Assembly (NCBI GenBank): GCA_027068085.1
Contig: JAMOUQ010000022.1
Span: forward strand, 23,907-87,906
Source: Desulfobacteraceae bacterium
GTDB lineage: Bacteria > Desulfobacterota > Desulfobacteria > Desulfobacterales > Desulfosarcinaceae
Direction: 5' to 3'
Length of the DNA: 64,000 nucleotides
In this document: positions 807-34,219 of the stretch, one piece after another
How positions within the stretch are numbered: the first letter of the stretch is position 1
How the letters are laid out: each line of letters opens with the position of its first letter
Notes under the pieces: generated by a model
The model's input: the letters and a program-made list of their open reading frames with translations, nothing else
Told to the model about the DNA's origin: nothing
Database searches by the model: none
Made by a program: the position numbers and the translations under genes

Positions 807-811
807 GTTAA

Positions 812-2335: not shown

Positions 2336-2349
2336 GTCAAGAAATTGAC
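2336..2349. promoter_or_regulatory. FleQ-box-like palindrome GTCAAGAAATTGAC (candidate enhancer/UAS)
   Basis: Perfect GTCAA-N4-TTGAC palindrome centred about 84 bp upstream of the GG of the sigma54 promoter at 2426. Confidence 0.45.
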
Positions 2350-2425
2350 CGCAGGGTATGCTTCCGCCTGTCGGCCTGTGTAATTAACCCGAAGGAATAA
2401 CAGATGATTTTCAGTTTTCAGGAAT

Positions 2426-2441
2426 TGGTATATGCCTTGCA
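2426..2441 (+). promoter_or_regulatory. sigma54 (-24/-12) promoter of the sugar-nucleotide/glycosyltransferase operon
   Basis: TGGTATATGCCTTGCA matches TGGCACG-N4-TTGCW with exact GG-N10-GC spacing. It lies 86 nt upstream of the ATG at 2527, in a 272-bp intergenic gap. Confidence 0.65.
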
Positions 2442-2526
2442 AGCCTGTCATGGACAGAAGGAAAGCTGAAATCTGTCTGCCGGCAAGCAGGGTGACGGCA
2501 CGGGCAGCTCAGGCCAGGGCGGGAAT

Positions 2527-3306
2527 ATGGTTAAAGGCACGCATCACGGGAAGCAAAAACGTATCAGGACAGGCAGTCTCCGGGCGGTGATCCTGGCAGG
2601 GGGGCTGGGAACCAGGCTGAGGCCGGTTGTCAGCCATGTGCCCAAGACAATGGCCCCGGTGGGACAAAGGCCCTTTTTGTCCTACCTGCTGGACTGGCTC
2701 CAGGACCAGGGCATACGAAGGGTATTGCTTTGCACCGGGTATCTGGGAGAGCAGATCGAAGCTTGCTACGGAAGCGGCTACGGCCGGATCAGCCTTTCCT
2801 ACTGCAGGGAAGAAAAACCGATGGGGACAGGCGGAGCTTTGGCGCTGGCAAGTGGGCTGATCGATTCCGCCCACTTGCTGGTCTTGAACGGAGACTCTTT
2901 TTGCCAGGTGGACCTGGGGCATTTTCTGGAATGGCACCTGGGAAAAGGCGCCTGCGCTTCATTGGTCACTGTCCGCCGTCCGGACGCCGGGCGATACGGC
3001 AGGGTGAGTTTCAGCCGTTCCGGCAGGGTAACGGCCTTTGAAGAAAAACAGCAACAGAATATTCCCGGCTGGATAAACGGCGGAATCTACCTTTTCCGGA
3101 GCCGGGCCATCGCGGAACTTGAAAGAAAGGGGCCGTTTTCCATCGAGTACGACCTGCTGCCTTCGTTGTTGGCAAGAGGGCTTTTCGCCTTCCGGAGCCG
3201 GGGTGGCTTCATAGACATCGGCACACCGGAAGACTACCGCCGGGCAGGAGAGTTCTTTGCCGCACGGCGGCACGCGGAGTCTGCCGGGCAGGTTTCAATC
3301 TGTTGA
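2527..3306 (+). CDS. sugar-1-phosphate nucleotidyltransferase (HddC-like heptose-1-phosphate guanylyltransferase candidate)
   Basis: 259 aa. N-terminal AVILAGGLGTRLRP pyrophosphorylase signature. Adjacent to a COG2605-type GHMP kinase, as in GDP-heptose loci. Confidence 0.75.
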   Translation: MVKGTHHGKQKRIRTGSLRAVILAGGLGTRLRPVVSHVPKTMAPVGQRPFLSYLLDWLQDQGIRRVLLCTGYLGEQIEACYGSGYGRISLSYCREEKPMGTGGALALASGLIDSAHLLVLNGDSFCQVDLGHFLEWHLGKGACASLVTVRRPDAGRYGRVSFSRSGRVTAFEEKQQQNIPGWINGGIYLFRSRAIAELERKGPFSIEYDLLPSLLARGLFAFRSRGGFIDIGTPEDYRRAGEFFAARRHAESAGQVSIC

Positions 3307-3319
3307 CTGGCCACGGGAT

Positions 3320-4315
3320 ATGATCATTTCAAAGACACCATACCGGATTTCTTTTTTCGGAGGCGGAACCGACTATCCGGCCTGGTACCGCAGGCACGGC
3401 GGAGCGGTTCTTTCCACCACCATCGACAAGTACTGCTATATCAGTTGCCGGGTGCTGCCCCGTTTTTTCGACCACAAGTACCGGGTGGTCTGGTCGCACA
3501 TCGAAAACGTTTCCAGCATAGGAGAAATCCTGCATCCTGCCGTCCGGGAGGGGCTGCGCTACCTGGGAGTCAACGGCGAGATGGGGCTTGAAATCCATCA
3601 CCAGGGAGATCTTCCGGCCCGGGCCGGCATGGGATCGAGCTCGGCCTTTGCCGTCGGGCTGATCAAGGTCATTACGGCCCTCAAGGGCCAGATGCTGGAC
3701 AAACACCAGCTGGCCCTGGCAGCCATAGATTTCGAGCAGAACGTGCTCAAGGAGAACGTGGGTTCCCAGGACCAGATGGCGACGGCCTACGGAGGCTTCA
3801 ATATCTTCCGCTTCAACCGGGACGGCTCCATTCAGGCAGAACCCATCACCCTGCCGCCGGAAAGGATCAGGGATCTGGAACGCCACCTGGTCATGCTTTA
3901 CACCGGCACCAGCCGCCTTTCTTCGGAGATTGCCGGAGAAATAATCTGTCAGGTGAGCCAACGCCAGGAGGTGTTGCAACAAATGAGACAGATGGTTGAC
4001 CGGGCGGTGGACATCCTGCGCGGCCCGGAATCCATAATCGAATTCGGCCGCCTGCTGGACCGCAGCTGGCACCTCAAACGGCAACTGGCCGATAAGGTAA
4101 GCAATCCGGCCATAGACCGCATCTACCGGAAAGCCCTGGAAAGCGGGGCCGTGGGAGGAAAGTTGCTGGGCGCCGGAGGTTCGGGGTTCATGATTTTCTT
4201 TGTTCCGCCTGAAAAAAGGATGCAGCTTCAGCAGGCCCTGGAAGGTTACCTCCAGGTGCCTTTCAGGTTCGAAAAACAGGGCGCAAGCCTTATTCACTAT
4301 TCCAATGATGACTGA
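3320..4315 (+). CDS. GHMP-family sugar kinase (HddA-like D-glycero-D-manno-heptose 7-phosphate kinase candidate)
   Basis: MIISKTPYRISFFGGGTDYP N-terminus and GHMP motif GDLPARAGMGSSSAF. The start is moved to the ATG at 3320 because the ORF-track start at 3257 overlaps the upstream gene. Confidence 0.75.
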   Translation: MIISKTPYRISFFGGGTDYPAWYRRHGGAVLSTTIDKYCYISCRVLPRFFDHKYRVVWSHIENVSSIGEILHPAVREGLRYLGVNGEMGLEIHHQGDLPARAGMGSSSAFAVGLIKVITALKGQMLDKHQLALAAIDFEQNVLKENVGSQDQMATAYGGFNIFRFNRDGSIQAEPITLPPERIRDLERHLVMLYTGTSRLSSEIAGEIICQVSQRQEVLQQMRQMVDRAVDILRGPESIIEFGRLLDRSWHLKRQLADKVSNPAIDRIYRKALESGAVGGKLLGAGGSGFMIFFVPPEKRMQLQQALEGYLQVPFRFEKQGASLIHYSNDD

Positions 4316-4321
4316 CAGGCA

Positions 4322-5173
4322 ATGCAGAAAAACTTGACAGCAAAGCAATTGGCTGAAACCGCCCGCCGCCTGCGCAAGGTGGTGCTGGAGATGTGCATCG
4401 CCCGGGGAGGGCATCTTGCATCTTCCTTTTCCTGCCTGGAGATCCTGGTGACCCTGTATCACGGCGGGGTTTTGAGATTCGATCCGCGACGGCCTGATTG
4501 GCCGGCAAGGGACCGCTTCGTTTTGAGCAAGGGCCATGCCGAAGCCGCCTACTACGCCGTTCTGGCCGATCTTGGATTCTTTCCTTCCTTCTGGCTGGAA
4601 AAGCACTACCGCCGGGGTGAATGCCGCCTGGGAGGACATCCCGATCACCGCCTGCCCGGGGTAGAGGTCAGCACCGGCGCCCTGGGCCACGGACTGGGTT
4701 TGGCGGTGGGAATGGCCATGGCCGCCAAGGCCGAGCGGGTGGCCAGGCGTCAATTTGTACTGATGGGTGATGCCGAGTGCACCGAGGGGGCCGTCTGGGA
4801 AGCGGCCCTGCTGGCAGCCCGCCGCGAACTCGACAATCTGGTGGCCATCATCGACCGCAACCGGATCGGCTCCATCGACTACACTGAGAATTATACCCGC
4901 CTGGAGCCTTTTAAGGACAAGTGGCAGGCTTTCGGCTGGCAGGTGGAGCAGTGCGACGGTCACGATCCGTCCCAGTTGCTACAGAAACTTGACAGCCTGC
5001 TGGAAAGCCAAAACCCAGCGCCTGGGATGTTGATTGCCAACACCGTAAAAGGCAAAGGGATTGATTTCATGGAGGACGATCCCATCTGGCACGTGCGTCC
5101 CCTGCAAGATCACGATCTTATCGCGGCGGCCCGCCGGCAGGTGGAAGGAGAACCTCTTCATGGAGATGCGTGA
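4322..5173 (+). CDS. transketolase, N-terminal (ThDP pyrophosphate-binding) subunit
   Basis: 283 aa with GGHLASSFSCLEILVTLY, HPDHRLPGVEVSTGALGHGLG and GDAECTEGAVWEAA motifs typical of split transketolases. Confidence 0.85.
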   Translation: MQKNLTAKQLAETARRLRKVVLEMCIARGGHLASSFSCLEILVTLYHGGVLRFDPRRPDWPARDRFVLSKGHAEAAYYAVLADLGFFPSFWLEKHYRRGECRLGGHPDHRLPGVEVSTGALGHGLGLAVGMAMAAKAERVARRQFVLMGDAECTEGAVWEAALLAARRELDNLVAIIDRNRIGSIDYTENYTRLEPFKDKWQAFGWQVEQCDGHDPSQLLQKLDSLLESQNPAPGMLIANTVKGKGIDFMEDDPIWHVRPLQDHDLIAAARRQVEGEPLHGDA

Positions 5174-6101
5174 CCGCTTCATAGACAGGATTTACCGGGC
5201 GGCCCTGGAAGATGAGCGGATCGTCTTCTTGTCGTGTGAATACGGGGCTCCCGGCCTGGACAGGTTCAGGGCCGATTTGCCGGACCAGTTCATCAATGTC
5301 GGCATCAGCGAGCAGAACGCCGTCTCGGTGGCTGCCGGCCTGGCCAAGGAGGGCAGGCGGGTTGTCGTTTACAGCATCGCCTCCTTCATAACCCTGCGCT
5401 GCCTGGAGCAGGTAAAACTCGATCTTTGCGCCATGGGCCTTCCGGTGACCATTGCCGCCGTGGGGCCGGGATGGGCCTACGGTGTGGACGGGCCGACCCA
5501 CCACGCCACCGAGGACCTGGCCCTGATGCGGGCCATGGCCGGCATGACCATCTTCAGCCCCGGCGACGGCATGACCGTGGAGCTGGCGGCCGACACGGCT
5601 CTGGGGTCAGACGGCCCTGTATATTGCCGCCTGGACCGGGGTGATTTCCCGGTTCTGGGTAAGATCTCGGCCGCGGACAAGCAAAACGGCTTCCGGCTTT
5701 TCGGTGGCCCGGCCCGCATCTGCCTGGTGACAACCGGTTCAATGGTGCACCAGGCTCTGGAGGCGGCCCGCAAGGTGGCCGGTCAGGGAGTGGAACTTGC
5801 CGTGCTGGATCTTTTCCGGATCAAGCCCCTGGAGACCCATGCCCTGGCAGAAGTTTTGGACGGATACGATTTTCTTCTGACCCTGGAGGAACACACCATC
5901 AACGGCGGGTTGGGATCGGCTGTGGCCGAGGTGTTGATTGATTACGGCCTGAAGGCCGGTTTGCGGAAAATGGCAATAGCTGACGAGCGCCTGTATGCTT
6001 ACGGTTCGCGCGACAGGTTGAGAAACAATGCCGGAATTGATGGTCCAGCCGTGGTTGATGCGGTCCTGGAGGCGGCTGGTAAGCGCCGTAGTGCGGCCTG
6101 A
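5160..6101 (+). CDS. transketolase, C-terminal (pyrimidine-binding) subunit
   Basis: The ATG at 5160 overlaps the upstream stop. FINVGISEQNAVSVAAGLA and GPTHHATEDLALMRAM motifs. Confidence 0.85.
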   Translation: MEMRDRFIDRIYRAALEDERIVFLSCEYGAPGLDRFRADLPDQFINVGISEQNAVSVAAGLAKEGRRVVVYSIASFITLRCLEQVKLDLCAMGLPVTIAAVGPGWAYGVDGPTHHATEDLALMRAMAGMTIFSPGDGMTVELAADTALGSDGPVYCRLDRGDFPVLGKISAADKQNGFRLFGGPARICLVTTGSMVHQALEAARKVAGQGVELAVLDLFRIKPLETHALAEVLDGYDFLLTLEEHTINGGLGSAVAEVLIDYGLKAGLRKMAIADERLYAYGSRDRLRNNAGIDGPAVVDAVLEAAGKRRSAA

Positions 6102-6121
6102 GGTAAAAGGAGTAAAGCTGG

Positions 6122-7054
6122 ATGAAGATCTTGGTGACAGGTGGAGCAGGCTACATCGGTTCGGTACTGGTACCGCAGCTTCTGGACAAGGGCTGGCAGG
6201 TGACGGTGGTGGACAATTTCATGTACGGGCAGGGCTCCTTGCTCGATTGCTGCCACCGGCAAGAACTGGAGATAATAAGGGGCGATGTGCGCGACAAGGA
6301 CCTGATGCGCCGGCTGGTCGCCGGCCACGACGCCATCCTGCCCCTTGCCTGCCTGGTGGGGGCTCCGCTTTGCGCCCTGAGGCCCGACGAGGCCCGGGCG
6401 GTAAACTACGATGCGGTCAAAACCATCGTCGAGGCTGCCGGAGCGCAGCAGGCCATAATTTTTCCCACCACCAACAGCGGCTACGGGGTGGGGCAGAAAG
6501 GGGTCTTTTGCACCGAGCAGACTCCCCTCAATCCGGTCTCACTCTACGGCCGGCTGAAAGTCGATATCGAAAAGGCCCTCCTTGACAGGGGCAACGCCAT
6601 AACCCTGAGGCTGGCCACGGTTTTCGGAATCAGCCCCAGGATGCGGATCGACCTGCTGGTCAACGATTTCACCTACCGGGCGGTGCACGACGGTTTCGTG
6701 GTCCTCTACCAGGCCCGTTTCATGCGCAACTACATCCATGTCCGCGACGTGGCCGCCGCCTTCATCCACTGCCTGGAAAACTTCGGCCGCCTGCCCAAGG
6801 AAGCCTACAACGTGGGACTGAGCGACGCCAACCTGAGCAAGTGGCAGCTTTGCCAGGAGATCAAGAAGCAGGTGCCTGATTTCTATTTTGTGGAGGCCGA
6901 GGTGGGAGAAGATCCGGACAAGCGCGATTACATCGTCAGCAACGCCAAGTTCGAGGCCACCGGTTTTTTGCCGGGCTTCGGTCTCCGGCAGGGGATCGCC
7001 GAGCTGATCAAGGGCTACCGGGTAATCAAGCGCAACCAGTACGCCAACCTGTGA
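6122..7054 (+). CDS. NAD-dependent epimerase/dehydratase (extended SDR)
   Basis: 310 aa. MKILVTGGAGYIGS Rossmann motif and a YGRLK catalytic YxxxK. Confidence 0.8.
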   Translation: MKILVTGGAGYIGSVLVPQLLDKGWQVTVVDNFMYGQGSLLDCCHRQELEIIRGDVRDKDLMRRLVAGHDAILPLACLVGAPLCALRPDEARAVNYDAVKTIVEAAGAQQAIIFPTTNSGYGVGQKGVFCTEQTPLNPVSLYGRLKVDIEKALLDRGNAITLRLATVFGISPRMRIDLLVNDFTYRAVHDGFVVLYQARFMRNYIHVRDVAAAFIHCLENFGRLPKEAYNVGLSDANLSKWQLCQEIKKQVPDFYFVEAEVGEDPDKRDYIVSNAKFEATGFLPGFGLRQGIAELIKGYRVIKRNQYANL

Positions 7055-7062
7055 GGAGGAAC

Positions 7063-8058
7063 ATGCAAACAGCCTACCGCAAGATCATGGTAACCGGTGC
7101 CAGCGCAGTGCTGGGAACCGCCATCTGCGCCGAAAGCCGCAACCATACCGGCCGGGATTTTCTTTTTCTTTCGTCCCGGGACTGCGACCTTACCGATCCT
7201 GAGGCCACCGACCGGCTGTTCGAGCGCTTCAGGCCGGATGCGGTCATGCACCTGGCGGCGGTAAGCGGCGGGATCGGCCTGAGCATGAAGTACCCGGCCA
7301 CCTTGCTGCGGGACAACGTGATGATGACCTTCAACGTCCTGGAGGCGGCCCGCCGGCACCAGGTGGCCAAGACCATCATGACCCTGACGACCGGCATGTA
7401 TCCGCCCCAGGCCCCCCTGCCGCTGAACGAGGACAACATCCACGACGGCTATCCCCACCAGTCCAACTACGGCTCGTCCTTTGCCAAGCGGCTGATCGAT
7501 CCGGCCATCAGGGCCTACCGCGAGCAGTACGGGCTGAACGTCATCGGGCTGATACCTTCGGGCATCTTCGGCGAAAACGACAATTTCAACCCCCAGGACG
7601 CACCCATGGTGCCGGCCCTGATAAGAAGGATGTATGCCGCCCGCAAAACCGATGAGCCCATCGTCATCTGGGGGGACGGAACTCCGTTGCGGGAATACAC
7701 CTATTGCCGCGATCTTGCCAGGATCTACTTTTGGGCCCTGGACAACTACGACGAGGGCCAGGTCCTGAACATCGGCACCACCGAGGAGAATTCCGTCAGG
7801 GACATCGCCTTCATGATTGCCGACAAGCTGGGCATAGACCGTGGCCGGATCCGCTTCGATCCGGCCAGGCCAAACGGGGTGTTGCGCAAAAGCACGGACA
7901 ACTCGCGGTTTATCCGCCTTTCGGGCTTCAGATACACGCCCTTTGAGGTGGGACTTGAAAAGACCATCGCCTGGTTTGTCAGGACCTATGAACAGAATCC
8001 CGGACAGCTCAGGATGGGATCCAAGGCCCGGGAGGCAGCGCAGCCACAGGCGGCCTGA
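7063..8058 (+). CDS. GDP-L-fucose-synthase-like SDR (NDP-4-keto-sugar epimerase/reductase candidate)
   Basis: KIMVTGASAVLGTAI Rossmann motif and overall GFS/WcaG-like layout (NEDNIHDGYPHQSNYGSSFAKR). ATG at 7063 is preceded by GAGGAGGA. Confidence 0.7.
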   Translation: MQTAYRKIMVTGASAVLGTAICAESRNHTGRDFLFLSSRDCDLTDPEATDRLFERFRPDAVMHLAAVSGGIGLSMKYPATLLRDNVMMTFNVLEAARRHQVAKTIMTLTTGMYPPQAPLPLNEDNIHDGYPHQSNYGSSFAKRLIDPAIRAYREQYGLNVIGLIPSGIFGENDNFNPQDAPMVPALIRRMYAARKTDEPIVIWGDGTPLREYTYCRDLARIYFWALDNYDEGQVLNIGTTEENSVRDIAFMIADKLGIDRGRIRFDPARPNGVLRKSTDNSRFIRLSGFRYTPFEVGLEKTIAWFVRTYEQNPGQLRMGSKAREAAQPQAA

Positions 8059-8082
8059 CCAGGGCCGCCGGGAAAGGGACGA

Positions 8083-9069
8083 ATGATGCAGTACCGCCGG
8101 CTTGGCACAACCGGAATCGAGGTGTCGGAGATAGGCCAGGGCACCTGGGGCCTGGGCGGCGACGCCTACGGTCCGGTAGATGAGCGGACATCGGTGGCCG
8201 TCCTGGAACGGGCATTTGCCGCCGGGGTGAACTTTTTCGACACCTCCGACCTTTACGGCAACGGCCGCAGCGAGCTGCTGCTGGCAAAGACCTTCAAGGG
8301 CCGCCGGGACAGGATCGTTATCGCCACCAAGGGCGGCATGCTGCCCCACCGCGGTTTCCACATGCCCCAGGATTTTTCCCCCGGCCACCTGGCCGGGTCC
8401 CTGGAGGCGAGCCTGAGGCGGCTGCAGACCGATTATGTCGATGTCTACCAGCTTCACAGCCCGCCGCGGGAAGTACTCGACCGGCAGGAAGTGTTCAAAC
8501 TGCTGGAAGACTTTCAGCGCCAGGGCAAGGTCAGAACCTTCGGCATTTCGGCCCGCTCGCCCGACGACGCCCTCTATGCCGTAAAAAAATACGCCATCGC
8601 CGTTGTCCAGGTGAACTTCAATCTTCTCGACCTGCGGGCCGTCGACAACGGGCTGTTTGCCGCCGCCGCCCGAAAGACGGGAATAATAGTTCGCACGCCG
8701 CTGGTTTTCGGGTTTCTCAGCGACAGCCTGAAGGCCGACCAGGGCTTTGCTCCCAATGACCACCGGGCCAACTGGCCCCCGGACCAGCGCCGGCGCTGGG
8801 TCGATGCCCGCGGCAGGTTCTCCTTTCTGTGGCATAAGACAGGCCGCACCCAGATTCAGGCGGCCCTGCGGTTCATCCTCGATTTCGAGGCGGTATCTAC
8901 CACCATCCCGGGCATGCTGACCTGCGGCCAGGTGGATGAAGACGTCCAGGCAAGCGGCCTGGCTCCGCTTTCAGAGGCAGAACACGAAAGGATCCGGATG
9001 ATCTACCATGAAAACGATTTCTATGACAAAAGCGCCAAACAACGGGGCAGGGGAGCCCAAGCCGCCTGA
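8083..9069 (+). CDS. aldo/keto reductase
   Basis: 328 aa. MQYRRLGTTGIEVSEIGQGTWGLGG, FFDTSDLYGNGRSE and DVYQLHSP motifs. Confidence 0.85.
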   Translation: MMQYRRLGTTGIEVSEIGQGTWGLGGDAYGPVDERTSVAVLERAFAAGVNFFDTSDLYGNGRSELLLAKTFKGRRDRIVIATKGGMLPHRGFHMPQDFSPGHLAGSLEASLRRLQTDYVDVYQLHSPPREVLDRQEVFKLLEDFQRQGKVRTFGISARSPDDALYAVKKYAIAVVQVNFNLLDLRAVDNGLFAAAARKTGIIVRTPLVFGFLSDSLKADQGFAPNDHRANWPPDQRRRWVDARGRFSFLWHKTGRTQIQAALRFILDFEAVSTTIPGMLTCGQVDEDVQASGLAPLSEAEHERIRMIYHENDFYDKSAKQRGRGAQAA

Positions 9070-9823
9070 CCCTTCCCGCTTCACCGAGCCCTCGCGTACC
9101 AGGCGATGGGAAATCGACTGGCGGGCCGGGGCCGGTGAATACTTCGATACCGGCATCGGAACCACAATAGAAAAGTTGCAGAACTTTGCCAAGTACGTTC
9201 CGACCCAGGACCTGCGCAAGTTCATCTGCCGCTGCGAGCTTTTCCGCAAGGTTCTCCATGTCCACGGCTCGATTATCGAGTGCGGGGTGCTCTACGGCGG
9301 GGGGCTGATGACCTGGGCTCAGCTGAGCGAGATTTTCGAACCCCTCAACCACACCCGCAACATCATCGGCTTCGACACCTTCGAAGGTTTTGTGAAAGTT
9401 TCGCCAAAAGACCGCCCGGGCAAAGCCGCCCAGTGCAAACCGGGAGGCCTGGCGTTAGACAGCTACCAGGACCTGCTGCGCTGCATCGAGCTGTACGATC
9501 AGAGCCGGTTTTTAGGCCATATCCCAAAGGTGCGGCTGGTCAAGGGGGACGTGGCTGAGACATTGCCGGTTTTCCTTGAGCAATTTCCTCATCTTGTGGT
9601 CAGCTTGTTGTGGCTCGATTTCGATCTTTACGAGCCCACGGCCGTGGCCCTGGAGCTGCTTGTACCCCGGATTCCAAAGGGCGGCATAATCGCCTTTGAT
9701 GAATTAAACCACGAGATGTGGCCCGGAGAGACGATCGCCGTGATGGAAAAGATAGGAATCACCGATCTGCGGGTCCAGAGGTTTCCCTTTGGGGGGACGG
9801 TGTCTTATGCAGTCATTGAATAG
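9008..9823 (+). CDS. TylF/MycF-like SAM-dependent O-methyltransferase
   Basis: 271 aa. GSIIECGVLYGGGLMTW ... GFDTFEGF ... LLWLDFDLYEPT pattern of the macrocin O-methyltransferase family. The start is uncertain because the ORF overlaps the AKR gene by 62 nt. Confidence 0.6.
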   Translation: MKTISMTKAPNNGAGEPKPPDPSRFTEPSRTRRWEIDWRAGAGEYFDTGIGTTIEKLQNFAKYVPTQDLRKFICRCELFRKVLHVHGSIIECGVLYGGGLMTWAQLSEIFEPLNHTRNIIGFDTFEGFVKVSPKDRPGKAAQCKPGGLALDSYQDLLRCIELYDQSRFLGHIPKVRLVKGDVAETLPVFLEQFPHLVVSLLWLDFDLYEPTAVALELLVPRIPKGGIIAFDELNHEMWPGETIAVMEKIGITDLRVQRFPFGGTVSYAVIE

Positions 9824-10832: not shown

Positions 10833-10853
10833 TGGAAAGAAGATGGTGTCCTG

Positions 10854-19117: not shown

Positions 19118-19122
19118 AGAAG

Positions 19123-27000: not shown

Positions 27001-27054
27001 GAGGCTGAAAAATGTTCGGATGTCGGTTGCCCGTTGCGCCGTGAGCATTGCCAT
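24013..27054 (-). CDS. 1013-aa protein with two tandem TPR + GT9-like modules (paralog of 21053..24016)
   Basis: Same module grammar, twice: DLVITIDTAVAHLAGAMGKPVWVMLPRTCDWRW...SPWYPGMRLFRQ and DLIITVDTATAHLAGALARPVWVLLPYLPDWRW...SPWYPGMRLFRQ. Confidence 0.8.
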   Translation of the reverse strand: MAMLTAQRATDIRTFFSLRGRSARRQGDLKSARDWFCRAVKADPGHPAGWVALGNILRRLSKPRAAAKCLHRALELEPDSPAILANLGNAYKDTGILDRAEYFYRQALERKPQLAEVHCNLAMVLLALGRMQEGWIHYQWRLKFLPSGKDYPERHGLALWKGQPLDGRNILVYDEQGFGDIFLFARYLRLLASRGAGVVFETRRQVLELFSRQDYLLHVLDRDSDRPPEITCHWCSPLASLPLLLGTTMSNIPVPVPYIAAGPEKSAFWEKRLALLAGRKKPGEKPVKIGLFWQNTTGIDPSRSVGLDNLAPLGNLCSQLPAVFFGLQKKPSDSDRKHDWLVMLDQHLTDFDQTAAIIDNLDLVITIDTAVAHLAGAMGKPVWVMLPRTCDWRWFLERTDSPWYPGMRLFRQHKCLDWHPVVRQVTARLKEFIKNMTSPAPAESSGRTESRGEEDLRFARAVELAQKGFPDRAAAIYRRLAVSDPVSAPAACYNLGLLLLQEQKPSQAARWFRRALDLQPDLARAANNLGCALEAAGRMQESREAFVQALKIDPGFGEAAYNLGRICLRRGHDREAARALRLAVETRPGNHLAWNDLAVAYQRLGNLLKAREALRRAVSLKPDFARAYQNLGNVWLDCGEPDTAIDCHAKAIELAGPTADDYIRQAELCRQWLRLKKAREYLEKALEIDPRHAGAHTALAETCLLEGDFPPGWRHFRWRFRLPECRTHIYPHRLKSPRWQGQSLKGRTILAHCEQGYGDTVQFIRYLPRLKQMGARVIAEVHPPLVRLVAAMEAVDQVLALDPEKPCRLAVDYHVPLMDLPGVFNTRLETIPGHTPYLRPTPEATARWSGRLNCGKFKVGLVWQGGVFHRHNSRRNLDPEQLAPLLALKDISFHSLQKFPAGESAPPDIVGYDLTDLGPLLRDFDDTAAAICRLDLIITVDTATAHLAGALARPVWVLLPYLPDWRWLLQRIDSPWYPGMRLFRQLRPGQWDHPLALIRDQLEVMLRRRRLTA

Positions 27055-27147: not shown

Positions 27148-27163
27148 TGCAATCTTTGTGCCT
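27148..27163 (-). promoter_or_regulatory. sigma54 promoter for the 27054->21053 TPR-GT9 operon
   Basis: The minus strand reads AGGCACAAAGATTGCA (GGCAC-N5... TTGCA, exact GG-N10-GC spacing). It lies about 95 nt upstream of the ATG at 27054. Confidence 0.6.
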
Positions 27164-27227: not shown

Positions 27228-27241
27228 GTCAATTCTTTGTC
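27228..27241. promoter_or_regulatory. FleQ-box-like element GTCAATTCTTTGTC between divergent sigma54 promoters
   Basis: One mismatch to GTCAA-N4-TTGAC. Centred about 73 bp from the minus-strand promoter and about 97 bp from the plus-strand promoter. Confidence 0.4.
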
Positions 27242-27330
27242 GGTGGCAGGGACTGACGATATCACCGTCTCCGGCCGCCGAAGCCTTGCCGGCCGCAGCC
27301 CTGGCGTAAAATCACCCTGGCCGGAGCTTC

Positions 27331-27346
27331 TGGCGCGGCCCTTGCT
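27331..27346 (+). promoter_or_regulatory. sigma54 promoter for the 27434-30321 glycosyltransferase pair
   Basis: TGGCGCGGCCCTTGCT matches TGGCACG-N4-TTGCW with exact spacing. It lies 88 nt upstream of the ATG at 27434. Confidence 0.6.
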
Positions 27347-27433
27347 AACCAGTTTCTGGCAGGGACGCGTCCTGAAGCCCGGTTGCTTCAGGTCCTGTTT
27401 TGCCGGACAATCTCAACCCGGAGGGTAACCAGC

Positions 27434-28207
27434 ATGAGGCGCAGTTTCGTCATTCCGGTAATCGATTTTTCACCCCACAGCCCGTACGGCATCGAAACCC
27501 TGCTGGCCGACCTGGAGTCCATGCCCGGGGAGGTGATCTGCATCTTCAATTCAGGGGAAGTGTTTCAGAGGCTGGCCGGCCATCCGAGGATCGACAAGTT
27601 CTGTTACAACAAGCTCAACGCCGGGGTAAGCCGCTCCTGGAACATCGGAATCAACCTAAGCGAAGGTGACGCGGTCTATATTCTCAACTCCGACCTGCAC
27701 CTGGGGCCGTCGGCAGCCGATCAGCTGGAACATTACCTGTTCAGCCTGCCCAAGGCGGTGATAGTGGGTCCCCAGGGGTCACACCTGGATTTTAAAAAAC
27801 TCGAAGTGCGACGCTACTTTTCCAGGGGAACCTTCAGCGAGCCGGTGAAAACCCATGATGTCTCCGGGTTTTTCTTCTGCCTTCACCGCAGGCGCTTCCT
27901 GGATAACAAGCTCTGTTTCGATGTGCGCTACAGCCCCTGTTTCATGGAGGAATGGGACATGGCCCTCCAGGTGCTGGCCGCCGGTCTTGCCTGTTACGCG
28001 GTTCCGGTAACCGATTTCGAACATCACTGGGGGATTTCCGGCAGCAAAGAGAATTCGCCTGTCAACTATTTTGGCCGCACCGTTTACCGCAACGATATTC
28101 TGGCCGCCAACCGCGAGAAATTTCTGGCCAAATGGTTCGGCCGGCAGCAAAGAAAGCCCGGCGGCGTCTTTGACCGCAAGGAGGACAGATGCGCATCCTG
28201 TTTCTGA
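27434..28207 (+). CDS. GT2-like (GT-A fold) glycosyltransferase
   Basis: MRRSFVIPVIDFSPHSPYGIETLLADLES... and NAGVSRSWNIGINLSEGDAVYILNSDLHL. ATG at 27434 is preceded by GGAGGG (27420-27425). Confidence 0.6.
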   Translation: MRRSFVIPVIDFSPHSPYGIETLLADLESMPGEVICIFNSGEVFQRLAGHPRIDKFCYNKLNAGVSRSWNIGINLSEGDAVYILNSDLHLGPSAADQLEHYLFSLPKAVIVGPQGSHLDFKKLEVRRYFSRGTFSEPVKTHDVSGFFFCLHRRRFLDNKLCFDVRYSPCFMEEWDMALQVLAAGLACYAVPVTDFEHHWGISGSKENSPVNYFGRTVYRNDILAANREKFLAKWFGRQQRKPGGVFDRKEDRCASCF

Positions 28208-30321
28208 TCCATGAGTATCCAAACTACGTGCCCGACCTTTTGCTGCACGGCCTGCGCAAGATTTTGGGGCCTGAAGCGGTGGAATACCCGCGCAAGGACT
28301 GCCTTTACCGGGGGGTTATCGGCCTGGGTGTGTGCCCGCCGGACCAGCTTTGCCCGGGCTGGTTCCCTGACGACGGCGAAGCTGTCGACCGTTCCGATAT
28401 CGAGGCCAAGGTCAGGACCGGATACTTCGACCTGGTCATTGCCGACCAGCGCCTTGCACCCTGGCAGGACCGGCTTCTGGCAGACTGCGGTGCGGCCCTG
28501 GTGATCGTCGACGGCGAGGACCGGCCGGCCCCTGTTCCCGCCGGCGACTGGATCATCTGCCGCCGGGAGACAGATGGAAGCGACTTCAGCATACCCCTTC
28601 CCATGGCCCTGCCCGAGGAGGTCTTCAATATCATCGCCGGCTTCGATTCCGAACCCAAGCAATACAGCCTCGGCTTTCTGGGAAGCACCCACGACGGGCA
28701 AAGGCGGCAGATCGTTGAAAAACTTGCCCGCTGGTACCCTGACAGCCTCCTGGCGGCCACAGGCGTTCCCAGCCCGGAAGAGCCCAGACCGGAAGGCAGG
28801 CTGGCACGGGCGGACTACTACCGGATGCTGCAGCGCTGCAAGATGGTGCTCAGCCTTCCGGGGGCCGGATACGACACCTTTCGCTTCTGGGAAAATACCG
28901 CCTGTAACGCCCTGCACCTGGTGCAGCAGATGCCGCTTTTTATTCCCGACGATTTTGTATCCGGACGCCACGTGCTGCGCTTCGAGCAGCCGGAAAAACT
29001 GCGCCCTCACCTGGACGGGCTGCTGGCAGACCGGGAAGGTTGCCGGCAAATGATAAGCGAGCAGCGCTATCATCTTTACCGCCATCACCTGACTTCGGCC
29101 CGGGCCGCCTATTTCCTGGACAGGGTCAACCGGGCCCTGGGCAGACGGGTATTTCAGCCGGCCGGCGGACCGGTCCGGATACTGTCGGGGGGGCAGGCTG
29201 CCGCCGATCCGGCGGCCGGTGCCGGTGAGACCCCGGCAGCCAAAGACGAAGAATGCCTCTACCTGGGGCTTGTGCGGGGTGACAATTACGGTTGGGGTGT
29301 TTGCAGCGCAAAGCTGATCGAGGAACTGGGCCGTTTGCGCAAGGTCCATGTGTTGTCCGAAGAAGACGGATCGGCATCGGACCCAGATCTTGACGGCGAC
29401 CTTTTCCAGGCCCTGAAAAGCGTCGATTTTTTTCCCATGTTTTCCAAGGCAAGGGGAAGGCGCAATTTCGGGTACACCTTTTTCGAAAACGAGCTGACTG
29501 CCAATTCAATGCGTAACGCGCCGGCCTACGACCTTATCCTGGCCGGATCCACCTGGTGCCGGGACAGGCTGCTGGAAAAAGGAATAACCAACTGCGACGT
29601 TCTGCTCCAGGGCATCGATCCGGAAATCTTCTATCCTTCGGACGAACCGGCCAACAGGGATAGGTTTGTCATCTTTTCCGGCGGCAAGTTCGAACTGCGC
29701 AAGGGACAGGACCTGGTGCTGAAGGCCGTCAAGGTGCTGATGGACAAATATCCCGACGTCTTTCTGGTCACGTGCTGGTACAATCTCTGGCCTGAATCCC
29801 TGAAACTGATGGAATACTCCAAACATATAAATTTCAGGTACAGATCCGGCCTTTCCTGGCAAGAGCTGATGAACACCACCTGCGTGGAAAACGGGCTGGA
29901 TCCGGCCCGGGTGACTGTTCATGAACTTGTGCCCCATGACCGGTTGCGGCGCCTTTATCTCGACACCACCCTGGGCCTTTTCCCCAACCGCTGTGAAGGC
30001 GGAACCAACCTGGTCCTGATGGAATACATGGCCTGCGGCCGGCCGGTGATAGCATCTTTTACCAGCGGCCACAGGGACGTTGTCAATCAGGGCAACGCCC
30101 TGCTGCTGACCGAGCTTCAGGACTTTCTGGTGCGGATGGCAGACGGGAATCTGGTGGCCCGCTGGCAGGAAGCCGATTTTCACCAGCTGGTGGAGCACCT
30201 GGAGTACGCCTATCATAACCGGGACCAACTGGAAACCCTCGGCCGCCGGGCAGCCGGAGACATGGCCCGCCTGACCTGGGGGGCGAGCGCCCGCCGGCTT
30301 CTGGATATCCTTGCCGGATAA
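28189..30321 (+). CDS. 710-aa two-domain glycosyltransferase (N-terminal CgeB/exostosin-like domain + C-terminal GT1/GT4 domain)
   Basis: N-terminal half: YYRMLQRCKMVLSLPGAGYDTFRFWE. C-terminal half: RFVIFSGGKFELRKGQDLVL ... EGGTNLVLMEYMACGRPVIAS (GT-B, E-x7-E-like). AAGGAGGA lies before the ATG at 28189. Confidence 0.7.
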   Translation: MRILFLIHEYPNYVPDLLLHGLRKILGPEAVEYPRKDCLYRGVIGLGVCPPDQLCPGWFPDDGEAVDRSDIEAKVRTGYFDLVIADQRLAPWQDRLLADCGAALVIVDGEDRPAPVPAGDWIICRRETDGSDFSIPLPMALPEEVFNIIAGFDSEPKQYSLGFLGSTHDGQRRQIVEKLARWYPDSLLAATGVPSPEEPRPEGRLARADYYRMLQRCKMVLSLPGAGYDTFRFWENTACNALHLVQQMPLFIPDDFVSGRHVLRFEQPEKLRPHLDGLLADREGCRQMISEQRYHLYRHHLTSARAAYFLDRVNRALGRRVFQPAGGPVRILSGGQAAADPAAGAGETPAAKDEECLYLGLVRGDNYGWGVCSAKLIEELGRLRKVHVLSEEDGSASDPDLDGDLFQALKSVDFFPMFSKARGRRNFGYTFFENELTANSMRNAPAYDLILAGSTWCRDRLLEKGITNCDVLLQGIDPEIFYPSDEPANRDRFVIFSGGKFELRKGQDLVLKAVKVLMDKYPDVFLVTCWYNLWPESLKLMEYSKHINFRYRSGLSWQELMNTTCVENGLDPARVTVHELVPHDRLRRLYLDTTLGLFPNRCEGGTNLVLMEYMACGRPVIASFTSGHRDVVNQGNALLLTELQDFLVRMADGNLVARWQEADFHQLVEHLEYAYHNRDQLETLGRRAAGDMARLTWGASARRLLDILAG

Positions 30322-30353
30322 TCCCTCACTGGCCGCAGGCCGGCCGGTCCGAC

Positions 30354-33300
30354 CTAGAATTTCCTCCTCAGGTCCGCAAGCACCTGTTCGATTACAGAAT
30401 GCCAGTCCCTGAGCCGCGGCTGACGGTAGAGCCTCATGGAAGGATACCAGGGGCTGTCGCTGCGCTCCAGCATCCAGCGCCAGTCGGGCACGAAAGGCAG
30501 CAACACCCACACCGGCCGGCCCAGGGCCCCGGCCAGGTGGGCCACGGCCGTATCGACGGTTACCACCAGGTCGCAGAGGGAGATGACCGCGGCCGTATCG
30601 GTGAAATCTTCAAGCTCCGGACCCAGGTTGGCGATACGGCGGTCCGGGGAAATTTCAACGGCCTGGGCGGCGGCAGGACCTTTCTGGAGGCCGATGAAAT
30701 CAAGGTCGAGCTGCAACCAGGGCCAAAGCATTTCAAGGGACAGGGAACGGTTGCGGTCGTTGGTATGCCGGGGCCGTCCGGCCCAGACCAGGGCCACCCT
30801 TGGCCGGCCGCTGTCTCCGAGGCGCTGTCGCCATTGTCCGATTTTGGCCGGGGAGGCCTTCAGATAAGGAGTCCGGGCCGGAATCGAGTCGAGGCCGGTT
30901 CCAAAGACAAGGGGCAGGCTCATCAGGGCAATGGCGGCCCGGGCGGCAACCGCCGGATGCCGGCTGCCGCCGGGGCGCAGAACGATCCGGTCGATTCCCG
31001 GCAGATTTTCCAGAAGGGCTGCAAGCTCCGGGCGCGTTTCCAGAACCAGCTTGCGACAACGCCTGCGGGCAAGCTCCAGGTAACGCGCGAACTGGATGGT
31101 ATCGCCCAGGCCCTGTTCGTCGTGGACGAAAAGGGTGCCATCGATATTCGTGCCGTCCCAAACCGGAAGGTCCAGGCGAAAGGGGTAGATGGTCTTCCAG
31201 CGGTCGATCTTGAAACGCCATTGAAAATCACGCCAGCCGCGCCGGAAATCGCCTTTTAGCAGGCGGACGAAGGCCCGGTTCCAGCGGGCCGCGGCCAGAT
31301 CGGGGGCAAGATCGATCGCCTTGTCGAAGCACTCCAGTGCCCGTGAGTAACAGCCCCGGTTTTTGTACGTCAGGGCCAGATTGTTCCAGGCCTCGGCATA
31401 AGCAGGGGAAATTTCCAGGGCCCGTTTCAGGCAGGCCTCCGCCTGGCCGAACCGTTCAGCCAGACGCAGGGCGCTGCCCAGATTGTAATGGGCCTGGGCA
31501 AGACCGGGGCATGCCTCGACAACCTTCTCGTAACACTTGATGGCATTAGGTATATCTTCCTGAATCAACAAGATATTGCCAAGGTTATTATATGCCTGCC
31601 AGCACTGACGGTCCAGGGCAATGACCTTTTCGTAGGCCCTTCGGGCGGCGGCGTGCTTTTTCAGCCTGGTAAGGATGTCGGCCAGCCTCAGCCAGGCCTT
31701 CGGGTCCTCAGGGTCGATGCGGACAGCATTTTCCAGGGCCGCGGCGGCGTTTACCGGATCCCCCGCCTGTTCCAGGAGCAGTCCCAGGTTGAAATGGGCC
31801 GCCCGGTAGCCGGGCTTGAGCTCGATGGCCTTCCTGTAAGCCGCCGCAGCCTGGCCGTCGTCTCCCGAGGCTTCCAGGGCCGCGGCCAGATTGAACCATA
31901 CATCGGGCCGGTCAGGATCGTTTTTCAGCAGCCGGCGATAGGTTTCCACGGCCCGCCGGTACTTTCCCAGCTTGTGAAAGGCGACCGCCAGGTTGAACAG
32001 GGCCGTATCGTTCCGGGGAAAGCGGGACAGGCAGCGCTGGTAGAGGGGGATGGCCTCGGCGTCCCTGCCGCGCTGCTGCAGGTCCATGGCCTTTTGCAGC
32101 AATACTGAAGGATCGTCCGTTCCGGCCGGGACGGAACCGGTGATGGCGGAAGGGCTGCTTTCAGGCCGGCCGCCTCCCGGGGCCTTGCGGGCGGCCCGGT
32201 GCAGAAAATTTTCCAATTCGCGGACAAAAAGGCGATCTTCGCAGAGACGGTGGTGGTTGGCGGCTGTTTTTTGGCGGACCCGTTCAAGGAAATCCCTGTC
32301 GGATGCAAGGCGGACAGCTATCCGGCAATACTGTTGCTTGTCCCGGGCAATGGTTTCGCCGATGCCCATCATTTTCAGGAAGGCGTATGCGTGCCGGCCG
32401 CGCATGAACCTTCCGGGCAGGGTGACCACCGGCAGGCCGCAGGCAAGCGCCTCCAGGGTGGTCTTGCCCCCGGACCATTCCAGGCTGTCCAGCAGGACAT
32501 CGGCCGAAAGGTTGAGCCGCAGGAAATCGGCGTGCTCCATCCGGGCAACGAACAGGCAGTATTTTTCCATTTCCAGGCCGAAACTCCGGAAGGCCCTTCG
32601 CAGGCGTTTCCTGAAGACGGCGCCGGCCTGCTTGACCGGGGCCTCGATGAATACGAAAAGGCTGCCGGGCACCCTGCGGGCGATGCGGGGATAGATATCG
32701 TCGTGGCGGGGCAGGTATTTGAAAACGGACTGGGTGGAAAGAAAGACGAAAGCGTCTTTTCGGATGCCGAAACGCCGGCGGTCCGGGGCAAGGCCCCCGA
32801 GCTGCGGAGCGCTCCAGGCCAGGGCCAGGTTGGGCAGGCGGATCAGTTGCTCGGTATAGTGCTGCTGAGCATCGGCAGGCTCCATCAGGTCGCTTGACAG
32901 ATAATAGTCGATGGTTGGAAGCCCGGTGGTGACCGGGTGGCCCCAGCCCTTGCACTGAACCGGTGCCAGGCGCATTGCCGCCACCAGGGTGGTGACCGGA
33001 TTCATGCCGATGTCGGTGTGCACCAGAACATGCAGATCGTCTTGCAGGATGGCGGCCGCGGCCTTGGGGCATCCCTCGGGCAGATGCCTGAAGCTGTGGG
33101 CCAGGGCGGCCGTGGCAACCGTCTGGCGGTCGGTTTTGCGGCCAAGGTGATAGAGAAATACCCGGAAACGGTCTTTGTCCAGGTGTTTGAGCCATCCATG
33201 GAGGAATATGCCGACCGTATGGGAATAAAGGCACGAGGATACAAATCCTATCCGGATTCTTTTGCCGGGCCGCAGCTGCGGTGTGCGGGGACGGCAAAAT

Positions 33301-34109
33301 CGGGGGAAATTGGCTGACATGATTCTGGATACCAGATTGCCCCATATGGAAAGCAGGGCGCGGTCATTGCGGCCCTGGTACTGGAGAAAGAAATTGCTGG
33401 TGACTTTCAGGCCGGCAAGGGCCTGCTGCCTTCCGTTGGGAGTGTCGAGCCGCACCGCAGCGGCCAGCGCCTCCAGGTTGGAGGCAAAACGGTTCCGGCC
33501 GGACTCGATCTGTTGTTCGTTTTCGTAGATCATGGGCAGGGAAAGGTCGTGCAGCCACTTGGCGGGAGCGTAATCAGGGTCTGCCGCCAGAGCCCGGCGG
33601 TAGAGTTCCAGCCCCTGCCGGTAGGCGCCTTTTTTCTGCGCCACGATACCGAGGTTATAAAAGACTACCGGACTGCCCGGATTGATTGACAGGGCCTGTC
33701 GGAGGCAGACTTCGGCCTGGTCGAGTTTTTCGGCGTCGCGGAAAAGCACTCCCAGGTTGTTCCACAGCTTCCAGTCGTTCATGCCCCGGGGCAGCGCCCT
33801 GCGGAAGATTTCCAGGGCCCCGGAGTAGTCGCCGAGCTGCTGATGGCAGCGGAACAGGTTGTAAAGGGAACGGTAATCGTCGGGATCGAGCTCGATGGCC
33901 TTGCGGTATGCAACCACGGCCTGTCGAATGTCGTCCAGATCTTCAAGGGCGCTGCCGCAATTGTGCCAGGCAACGGCGAGTCCCGGGTCCATAGCTGTGG
34001 CCTGACGATAAAGATCGACCGCTTTTTCGAGGTCATTTTGCTGGTGATATCCTACGGCCCGGTTGTAGGCCGCAATGGCCGCATTTTCCGCCCCAGTGGT
34101 GACCGGCAT
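30354..34109 (-). CDS. about 1250-aa TPR + GT41 (SPY/OGT-like) + TPR + GT9-like fusion protein
   Basis: GT41 part: RIGFVSSCLYSHTVGIFLHGW...FRVFLYHLG and LAPVQCKGWGHPVTTGLPTIDYYLSSD. C-terminal part: DLVVTVDTAVAHLAGALGRPVWVLLPFVPDWRWMLERSDSPWYPSMRLYRQ. ATG at 34109 (AGGGAG upstream) is preferred to the TTG at 34166. Confidence 0.8.
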   Translation of the reverse strand: MPVTTGAENAAIAAYNRAVGYHQQNDLEKAVDLYRQATAMDPGLAVAWHNCGSALEDLDDIRQAVVAYRKAIELDPDDYRSLYNLFRCHQQLGDYSGALEIFRRALPRGMNDWKLWNNLGVLFRDAEKLDQAEVCLRQALSINPGSPVVFYNLGIVAQKKGAYRQGLELYRRALAADPDYAPAKWLHDLSLPMIYENEQQIESGRNRFASNLEALAAAVRLDTPNGRQQALAGLKVTSNFFLQYQGRNDRALLSIWGNLVSRIMSANFPRFCRPRTPQLRPGKRIRIGFVSSCLYSHTVGIFLHGWLKHLDKDRFRVFLYHLGRKTDRQTVATAALAHSFRHLPEGCPKAAAAILQDDLHVLVHTDIGMNPVTTLVAAMRLAPVQCKGWGHPVTTGLPTIDYYLSSDLMEPADAQQHYTEQLIRLPNLALAWSAPQLGGLAPDRRRFGIRKDAFVFLSTQSVFKYLPRHDDIYPRIARRVPGSLFVFIEAPVKQAGAVFRKRLRRAFRSFGLEMEKYCLFVARMEHADFLRLNLSADVLLDSLEWSGGKTTLEALACGLPVVTLPGRFMRGRHAYAFLKMMGIGETIARDKQQYCRIAVRLASDRDFLERVRQKTAANHHRLCEDRLFVRELENFLHRAARKAPGGGRPESSPSAITGSVPAGTDDPSVLLQKAMDLQQRGRDAEAIPLYQRCLSRFPRNDTALFNLAVAFHKLGKYRRAVETYRRLLKNDPDRPDVWFNLAAALEASGDDGQAAAAYRKAIELKPGYRAAHFNLGLLLEQAGDPVNAAAALENAVRIDPEDPKAWLRLADILTRLKKHAAARRAYEKVIALDRQCWQAYNNLGNILLIQEDIPNAIKCYEKVVEACPGLAQAHYNLGSALRLAERFGQAEACLKRALEISPAYAEAWNNLALTYKNRGCYSRALECFDKAIDLAPDLAAARWNRAFVRLLKGDFRRGWRDFQWRFKIDRWKTIYPFRLDLPVWDGTNIDGTLFVHDEQGLGDTIQFARYLELARRRCRKLVLETRPELAALLENLPGIDRIVLRPGGSRHPAVAARAAIALMSLPLVFGTGLDSIPARTPYLKASPAKIGQWRQRLGDSGRPRVALVWAGRPRHTNDRNRSLSLEMLWPWLQLDLDFIGLQKGPAAAQAVEISPDRRIANLGPELEDFTDTAAVISLCDLVVTVDTAVAHLAGALGRPVWVLLPFVPDWRWMLERSDSPWYPSMRLYRQPRLRDWHSVIEQVLADLRRKF

Positions 34110-34203
34110 GACAGTTTTTCTCCCTGATGGGCTCTTAAAACCCGGATTGAGCGTTTCAATGCTCAAAACGGGCTGAAAGATGTGCGTCTCACAGGATCAG
34201 CGA

Positions 34204-34219
34204 TGCAATCAGGATGCCA
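34204..34219 (-). promoter_or_regulatory. sigma54 promoter for the TPR-GT41-TPR-GT9 gene
   Basis: The minus strand reads TGGCATCCTGATTGCA (exact GG-N10-GC spacing, TTGCA -12 element), in the 226-bp gap downstream of flaF. Confidence 0.6.

Follow-up and report, generated by a model that had tools for sequence, protein, structure and literature searches.

In this study we focus on a 64,000-nucleotide (nt) stretch of the genome of an uncultured, sulfate-reducer-type Desulfobacteraceae bacterium (metagenome contig JAMOUQ010000022.1; hereafter the window, from whose first letter all positions are counted), which carries a glycosylation island of more than 30 kb beside a flagellar gene cluster. The reading that we consider probable is that the four transcription units of the island, A to D, start at sigma-54 (-24/-12) promoters, that units A to C share a FleQ-type enhancer with motA and with the gene of the enhancer-binding protein (EBP) EBP2, and that the island enters the flagellar programme in this way through another such protein, EBP1. 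Sigma-54 flagellar regulons with a FleQ/FlrA-like activator have been established in Gammaproteobacteria and predicted in Desulfovibrionales (PMC4641369).

Sigma-54 promoters of the island and the flagellar genes

An earlier note on this DNA had listed ten -24/-12 elements, four in the island and six at flagellar genes, and had emphasised their GG-N10-GC spacing together with their match to the consensus TGGCACG-N4-TTGCW. Sites were scored against this consensus with GG and GC fixed and mismatches counted over the other ten defined positions, and start codons were re-assessed from ribosome-binding sites and gene calls. All ten elements were recovered where they had been placed, and they are the only matches with at most three mismatches in intergenic DNA. 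The spacing is present in each of them; taken alone it is uninformative, the bare GG-N10-GC pattern occurring at chance level (1103 matches in the window versus 1109 expected), and it is the fuller consensus that carries information. With at most two mismatches the window holds 12 matches, seven of which fall in the intergenic gaps, that is in 2731 nt or 4.3% of the window (Fisher p = 1.7e-7), and none of 2000 dinucleotide shuffles of the gaps reached seven (mean 0.24), which bears out the intergenic confinement that had been described. With at most three mismatches the gaps hold exactly ten elements versus a shuffle mean of 1.4, and all ten point to the downstream gene. No sigma-70-like consensus was found beyond chance in the gaps of the island.

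The four island sites show one to three mismatches and lie 86-95 nt from the start codons. Unit A (14 genes, 2527-21063, plus strand, internal gaps of at most 25 nt) is preceded by TGGTATATGCCTTGCA at 2426-2441 (+), with three mismatches and 86 nt to the start codon. Unit B (21053-27054, minus strand) is preceded by AGGCACAAAGATTGCA at 27148-27163 (-), 94 nt from the start codon, unit C (27434-30321, plus strand) by TGGCGCGGCCCTTGCT at 27331-27346 (+), 88 nt from the ATG at 27434, and unit D (30354-34109, minus strand) by TGGCATCCTGATTGCA at 34204-34219 (-), 95 nt from the ATG at 34109. A terminator-like hairpin followed by ATTTTT (2245-2267, plus strand) stands directly after the stop codon of hldE, the gene to the left of unit A, and separates it from the upstream unit, so that unit A needs a promoter of its own.

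On the flagellar side, consensus matches precede flbT-flaF (GGGCACGGAACATGCA, 35191-35206, minus strand), flgB (TGGTATGTAATTTGCT, 41075-41090, plus strand) and EBP1 (CGGCACAACAATTGCT, 37404-37419, plus strand). The site of motA is TGGCACGGTACATGCT at 51114-51129 (+), with GTG 51196 as the probable start codon of the gene. The sites of EBP2 (TGGCATAATTATTGCC, 39393-39408, plus strand) and, only sigma-54-like, of flhA (AGGCATGGAATGTGCA, 58938-58953, plus strand; probable start at ATG 59000) are, with that of unit A, the weakest of the set at three mismatches each; those of unit A and EBP2 are rescued by their conservation in relatives. The flagellin gene has the sigma-28-type promoter that had been assigned to it, TAAAGTTT-N11-TCCGATAA at 36943-36969 (-).

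A FleQ-type palindrome at enhancer distance

Side-by-side reading of the promoter regions revealed a 14-bp palindrome, GTCAA-N4-TTGAC (hereafter the box). With at most one mismatch over its 10 positions, the box occurs nine times in the window versus 1.14 expected, a count reached by none of 100 shuffles. Two exact copies (2336 and 50972) and two with one mismatch (27228 and 39271) are located upstream of sigma-54 sites, and the distance from box to promoter is 78-142 nt for units A, B, C, EBP2 and motA. The box of unit A, GTCAAGAAATTGAC at 2336-2349, is an exact palindrome 90 nt upstream of the promoter. Units B and C have one copy between them, GTCAATTCTTTGTC at 27228-27241, from which the two divergent promoters are 78 nt (B) and 103 nt (C) away. 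The box of EBP2, GTCAAGAAACTGAC at 39271-39284, is 122 nt upstream of its promoter, and that of motA, GTCAAGCCTTTGAC at 50972-50985, has exact half-sites and is 142 nt upstream. The Pseudomonas FleQ consensus, GTCaNTAAAtTGAC / GTCAaAAAAtTGAC (PMC6120874), is a motif of the same type. Moreover, the motif predicted for DVU2894 of Desulfovibrio vulgaris, an FlrA/FleQ-like activator, is yGTCA-N6-TGACr, with listed sites such as CGTCAATTTCTTGACC (PMC4641369), which is the reverse complement of the box of unit A.

Upstream of unit D, flbT, flgB, flhA and EBP1 no box was found at one mismatch or fewer over the 10-position pattern; a degenerate copy before flgB (GTCGGCCATTTGAC, 40976-40989) is below this threshold. 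The DVU1063/FlrC-type motif GGMA-N5-TKCC gave one match before flgB (40957) and nothing for unit D, and a second common dyad, sought in anchored promoter sets, came out only as TTGCA-N3/4-TGCAA, before EBP1 homologues.

The earlier note had described the island as a flagellar-regulon module and had seen the link to the flagellum in its sigma-54 promoters. Such promoters alone are no proof of membership in a flagellar regulon, since the genomes of Desulfobacteria hold 50-70 EBP genes (PMC12316311), and it is the shared enhancer that makes the case. The link is supported, in a stronger form than had been proposed, for units A, B and C through the shared enhancer and conserved synteny; unit D has a sigma-54 promoter and no recognisable box.

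Two other motifs were noted in the same regions. A box copy with exact half-sites, GTCAGCAAATTGAC at 11491-11504, lies inside the coding region of A10, 400 nt upstream of the gene for a 1541-amino-acid (aa) protein, and has no sigma-54 partner. GGMA-N4-6-TKCC dyads, similar to the published DVU1063 (FlrC-like) motif, were seen at 40957-40969, 35269-35280, 39374-39387 and 58904-58917, near the flgB, flbT, EBP2 and flhA promoters, with inconsistent spacing.

Conservation in related genomes

Relatives were collected by a one-genome-per-species scan with an alignment of homologues of C2, a unit C glycosyltransferase, which gave 80 loci on which the proteins were mapped (locus numbers carry the prefix L); for unit A, the contigs that carry homologues of the protein A01 were consulted. 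Many metagenome-assembled genomes (MAGs) of Desulfobacterales share the order island - flaF - flbT - fliC - EBP1 - EBP2 - flgBC, and in at least 12 genomes the island lies right next to flaF-flbT-fliC. In the closest relative, L169, whose C2 is 77% identical, every element of the window is present, and the promoters of unit D and EBP1 are identical.

For unit A, the hldE-A01 junction is kept in L162 (A01 62% identical) and in L164/L165 (54%), L165 coming from the same MAG as L002. The box is identical in L162 (GTCAAGAAATTGAC) and reads GTCAATAAATTGAC in L164, with diverging flanks, and the promoter sequence GAATTGGTAYATGCCTTGCAAG is invariant in L162 and L164. Indeed, the only long invariant stretches of the hldE-A01 gap in L162 and L164/L165 are GTCAAGAAATTGAC or GTCAATAAATTGAC and, 87-90 nt further, GAATTGGTACATGCCTTGCAAG. 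As a separate matter, an antisense sigma-54-like match inside the transketolase gene (4526-4541, minus strand) recurs in L162 at 8030-8045 (-); it is probably not a promoter and would be explained by conserved protein-coding sequence.

The same picture is seen between units B and C. An alignment of the gap between B1 and C1, the first genes of the two units, from the window, L169 and L002 shows conservation in three blocks only: the box, identical in L002 and GTCAATACTTTGTC in L169, and the two promoters, that of unit B reading AGGCACGGAGTTTGCA in L169 and AGGCATAATGCTTGCA in L002. A sigma-54 site precedes C1 homologues in L002, L003, L007, L009, L015, L018, L019, L026, L070 and L169, with a box 75-209 nt upstream, and at the C1 loci of relatives a second, divergent sigma-54 site usually points towards a gene in which tetratricopeptide repeats (TPR) are fused to a glycosyltransferase (GT).

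Concerning the remaining promoters, sites at the same place as promoter D are present in L003, L016, L009, L011, L013, L014 and L018, and in nine of 14 loci a site lies downstream of flaF before a D-type gene. Sigma-54 sites are kept before flgB in 5/5 loci, before EBP1 in 9/9 and before flbT in 6/8, and both box and promoter are found before EBP2 homologues in L010, L012, L014 and L169. Upstream of EBP1 itself we noted a 17-bp palindrome, TTTTGCAAATTGCAAAA at 37259-37275, about 145 nt from the sigma-54 promoter, at which the top level of the hierarchy may receive its input; TTGCA-N3/4-TGCAA dyads occur upstream of EBP1 homologues in L169, L010, L011, L018 and L026.

Pairs of a box and a promoter 40-220 nt apart were then counted. 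The Desulfobacterota loci (490 kb) contain 46 boxes, 25 of them with a partner, and 41 pairs versus 5.5 expected; loci from other phyla in the same scan (773 kb) contain 29 boxes, two with a partner, and three pairs versus 0.67 expected; unrelated soil contigs (441 kb) contain 14 boxes, none with a partner, and no pair versus 0.99 expected. A metagenome scan with the A01 protein had returned only generic NTP-transferase loci (at most 52% identity), of no use for synteny, and these served instead as a negative control. Homologues of B1, C1, C2, the TPR-GT41 protein, the NTP-transferase, an epimerase and EBP2 are encoded downstream of the pairs. Pooling gave the profile cGTCAA-N4-TTGACg for the box and, from 54 paired sites, TGGCAYG-N4-TTGCW for the promoter, with a median spacing of 109 nt.

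A fifth unit to the left of the window

The left limit of the island had been set at position 2336, and this does not hold. Locus L168 covers 10 kb of the same organism's DNA upstream of the window; on it, rfaD, gmhA and hldE come after a histidine-kinase gene, and the exact box GTCAAAAGATTGAC with TGGTATGAAAATTGCT stands before the kinase gene. The promoter of this fifth unit is about 2.15 kb left of the window, and the box is 195 nt upstream of the promoter. The arrangement kinase-rfaD-gmhA-hldE with box and promoter is also found in L162 and L164. As L168 supplies the upstream genes, the box and the promoter, the genes at 201-2254 (+), which match gmhA (SIS domain) and hldE (812-2254) in Pfam, form the end of a fifth unit built on the same plan, and the regulated region extends further left than had been thought.

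The kinase gene that heads this box-driven rfaD-gmhA-hldE unit lies within L168 5344-9029 (7.0 to 10.7 kb left of window position 1). Divergent from it, in the same interval, are genes for a CxxCxxCC protein, a receiver-domain sigma-54 activator of 462 aa (hereafter REC-EBP), a single-domain receiver and a PilZ protein.

Candidate activators of the box

Two activators are encoded in the window. EBP1 (37482-38531, plus strand) is a FleQ/DVU2894-like activator made of an AAA+ domain with the GAFTGA motif and a helix-turn-helix (HTH) domain. EBP2 (39484-40887, plus strand) is a FlrC/FlbD/NtrC-like activator, also resembling ZraR, with a generic Fis-type HTH and a degenerate receiver domain that has Asn at the phospho-acceptor position. 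NCBIfam assigned neither to a named equivalog, all scores being below the cut-offs. An N-terminal FleQ (REC-like) domain is absent from EBP1; as its AAA+ domain begins at residue 31 and its homologues are equally short (349-350 aa), the protein is FleQ-like in AAA+ and HTH only.

Among solved structures the best match of EBP1 is P. aeruginosa FleQ, HTH included (KRTTLVEKIKRY versus RRTTLVEKMRKY in FleQ), and the DVU2894 helix IKRTTLIEKLKK is nearly the same as VKRTTLVEKIKRY of EBP1. The recognition helix KRTTLVEK is common to FleQ, DVU2894 and EBP1; the corresponding helices are ISIRTLRNK in EBP2 and INITTVYRK in REC-EBP, and local alignment scores against the DVU2894 HTH are 90 for EBP1, 74 for REC-EBP and 41 for EBP2. 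Owing to this FleQ/DVU2894-type DNA-binding helix, EBP1 is the likely binder of the box and the best candidate among the three activators.

An improbable alternative is that promoters and palindrome are real and that another activator, with a signal of its own, binds the box: either REC-EBP with the histidine kinase at the left end, or EBP2 acting on itself, the island then being a separate surface-glycan module that merely overlaps some flagellar genes. REC-EBP is divergent from the fifth box-driven unit, of which the kinase gene is the first, its HTH score is not negligible, the box before EBP2 is compatible with autoregulation, and the 50-70 EBPs of Desulfobacteria offer other candidates (PMC12316311). 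However, the KRTTLVEK helix is missing from both proteins, the core flagellar genes motA and EBP2 carry the same box as the island, and in every relative examined EBP1 keeps its synteny with the island and the flagellin gene.

Under control by EBP1, this protein would bind the palindrome at units A, B and C, the fifth unit, EBP2 and motA, and would contact the sigma-54 holoenzyme through DNA looping, so that the promoters are opened. Sugar-nucleotide synthesis and TPR-glycosyltransferases would thereby come on at the same time as the early or middle flagellar tier, ahead of the transcription of the flagellin gene by sigma-28. Unit D, flbT-flaF and flgB would probably need a different activator, for which EBP2 is the simplest choice.

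A predicted flagellin glycosylation system

The proteins of the window were mapped with Pfam and NCBIfam scans. On its synthesis side, unit A encodes HddC/HddA-like heptose activation enzymes, a split transketolase, two epimerases, an aldo-keto reductase and a TylF-type methyltransferase; on its transferase side, a GT2 protein, the 1541-aa GT9/GT2/TPR protein, a GT2-TPR protein, a GT61 protein and a TPR-GT41 protein, several of these GT domains being fused to long TPR arrays. Unit B encodes two TPR/GT9-like giants, B1 (24013-27054) and B2 (21053-24018, ATG at 24016). Unit C consists of C1 (ATG at 27434), 257 aa and of unknown function, with a weak GT2 match in its L169 homologue, and of C2, a 710-aa double GT-B glycosyltransferase. 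Unit D is a single gene for a 1251-aa TPR-GT41-GT9 protein. In all, glycosyltransferase domains are joined to TPR repeats in six proteins. In the island the Pfam scans detected no gene for a flippase, a polymerase, a lipid-carrier transferase or export.

As would be expected of a flagellin-glycosylation island, nucleotide-sugar synthesis genes and cytoplasmic TPR-GT proteins are combined here with a conserved linkage to the flagellin gene. Because of this linkage, the TPR-glycosyltransferase architecture and the lack of lipid-carrier and export genes, we take flagellin to be the putative substrate.

The sugar pathway looks heptose-based, with HddC/HddA-like enzymes, gmhA/hldE/rfaD, the split transketolase, the aldo-keto reductase and the TylF-type O-methyltransferase (2527-9823 and 201-2254). 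GT9 (heptosyltransferase-like) domains are found in giant TPR proteins at 11891-16516, 21053-27054 and 30354-34109. This gene content suggests protein O-heptosylation of flagellin, a modification reminiscent of that made by the AAH/TibC autotransporter heptosyltransferases.

Somewhat less likely again than a different activator is that regulation is as described above and that the island builds another surface glycan, such as a lipopolysaccharide (LPS) core, a capsule or an S-layer or pilin glycan, co-controlled with motility by a FleQ-like regulator. FleQ indeed controls pel, psl and adhesin genes besides flagella (PMC6120874, PMC3424551), and gmhA, hldE and rfaD, which belong to ADP-heptose synthesis, are classic genes of the LPS core. 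Against this, none of the genes for a flippase, polymerase, lipid-carrier transferase or export was seen in the island by the Pfam scans, and flaF-flbT-fliC are its neighbours in the genomes counted above. Furthermore, the six TPR-GT fusions have the architecture of FlmG, a flagellin glycosyltransferase whose TPR domain binds flagellin (PMC7591256), and the boxes stand at enhancer distance from sigma-54 promoters, as they do at flagellar targets, whereas at pel they overlie sigma-70 promoters.

Finally, a short degenerate consensus might be matched by all ten elements through chance in GC-rich DNA, as the frequency of the bare spacing and the 45 three-mismatch sites of the window, mostly in coding DNA, could suggest. 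This reading is effectively refuted by the intergenic enrichment and shuffle tests, the correct orientation of all ten, their conservation at orthologous positions with diverging flanks, and a box pairing 7-8 times the chance rate.

Weighing of the regulatory model

What we observe are the promoter and enhancer elements with their statistics and conservation, and the resemblance between DNA-binding domains; from these we infer the box-binding protein, the order of the tiers and the glycosylation substrate. Several points weigh against control of a flagellin-modifying island by EBP1. Unit D has no box, and its tie to the flagellar regulon consists of its position and its sigma-54 promoter only; EBP1 has no box upstream, whereas DVU2894 orthologues carry one; and rpoN is not within the window. 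Binders other than EBP1 are conceivable, namely EBP2 through autoregulation or REC-EBP beside the fifth unit, and in Pseudomonas the proposed FleQ consensus has proved a poor predictor of chromatin immunoprecipitation (ChIP) peaks (PMC6120874).

On the other side, three features of a FleQ-type regulon were found together: GTCA-N6-TGAC at enhancer distance, an activator with GAFTGA and a FleQ-type HTH, and core flagellar and second-tier regulator genes as putative targets. A more far-reaching reading is possible, and we offer it tentatively: a domain-minimal FleQ homologue (AAA+ and HTH) may directly activate a very large, probably heptose-based flagellin-modification system as part of the early flagellar class in a broad group of Desulfobacterales, with five sigma-54 units, four of them controlled via single enhancers that are often shared by two divergent promoters, and six TPR-glycosyltransferase giants. 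If this is true, the capacity for filament glycosylation is built into the flagellar programme at the level of the master regulator, and is not a housekeeping add-on.

Relation to known systems

One of the systems most similar to that of the window is the flagellar regulon of the single-component EBP DVU2894 in Desulfovibrionales (Kazakov et al. 2015, PMC4641369), with the same motif type, a nearly identical recognition helix, sigma-54 promoters as targets, a flagellar function and the same phylum; the HTH alone was used to judge the orthology of EBP1 and DVU2894. In its published form that regulon is small, with DVU0047-0043, DVU0410-0409 and the gene of the regulator itself, whereas here the box would drive the glycosylation island together with EBP2 and motA and is not seen before EBP1. 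In D. vulgaris, the TPR protein DVU0318 of the flagellar regulon is under DVU1063, the other flagellar regulator (PMC4641369), and the word 'glycosyl' was not found in the text and supplements of that paper that were searched.

With the class II control exerted by Pseudomonas FleQ and Vibrio FlrA (with FleN/FlhG and a cascade to FleSR/FlrBC), the window shares the box consensus, sigma-54 class II promoters, a second EBP gene as target, the presence of flhF and flhG, and FleQ as the best structural relative of EBP1. The differences are that the N-terminal FleQ domain is missing from EBP1, that EBP2 has no sensor kinase gene beside it, and that the receiver of EBP2 is without the phospho-acceptor Asp.

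Glycosylation genes in a flagellar hierarchy have been described before. In H. pylori, the flagellin-glycosylation gene of flaB-jhp0106 is under RpoN in the flagellar hierarchy (PMC5368276); there one Maf-type gene alone is transcribed from the flaB promoter, whereas here dedicated sigma-54 promoters and an enhancer serve a whole pathway and six TPR-glycosyltransferases. In an H. pylori csrA mutant, pseB, pseC, pseH, pseG and pseI were not reduced (PMC5368276). Caulobacter crescentus FlmG (PMC7591256) has in common with the island the TPR-plus-GT architecture, flaF and flbT as neighbours, a short flagellin and glycosylation genes ahead of flagellin secretion, and differs in its CtrA control, its pseudaminic acid and its single FlmG, in contrast to the sigma-54 promoters, FleQ-type activator, heptose-looking pathway and six TPR-glycosyltransferases found here. 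Given these precedents in Helicobacter and Caulobacter, the advance is one of scope and lineage, and not of concept: our work adds a glycosylation system of more than 30 kb under a FleQ-type box, the recurrence of one box with two divergent promoters, and the spread of this arrangement across Desulfobacterales.

The predicted FleQ/DVU2894 regulon of sulfate-reducer-type bacteria is extended to filament glycosylation, and giant, otherwise unannotated TPR-glycosyltransferases with an unusual heptose-type pathway are tied to the flagellum by regulatory logic, beyond proximity. A search signature for uncultured Desulfobacterota also follows: GTCAA-N4-TTGAC with, usually 55-210 nt away, TGGCAYG-N4-TTGCW, often as a divergent pair.

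Other genes of the window

To the right of the island lie flaF and flbT, an open reading frame (ORF) of 215 aa, a 282-aa flagellin gene, EBP1 and EBP2. After EBP2 come flgBC-fliE-fliF...flgE, motAB, fliL...flhB, flhA, flhF, flhG and the start of fliA. The presence of flbT and flaF could suggest an alphaproteobacterial genome; this was rejected, close relatives being all Desulfobacterota MAGs, and the closest relatives of the window proteins are annotated as Desulfobacteraceae, Desulfosarcinaceae and 'delta proteobacterium' MAGs.

The 215-aa ORF (35215-35862, minus strand), between the flagellin gene and flbT, has no family match and is called by gene callers; weak homologues stand at the same place in L006, L009 and L169. 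Between EBP1 and EBP2, an ORF at 38522-39262 (227-246 aa) gives a faint FliH-like match (E = 2.4e-5), and its position is kept in L169. Two tandem MotB-like ORFs, 51960-52733 and 52549-53406, have a listed overlap of 185 nt, so that the second probably starts later. The C-terminal part of flhF (61092-62507) matches the Ada zinc-binding domain (PF02805, E = 4.6e-7, residues 406-452), which is unusual for FlhF.

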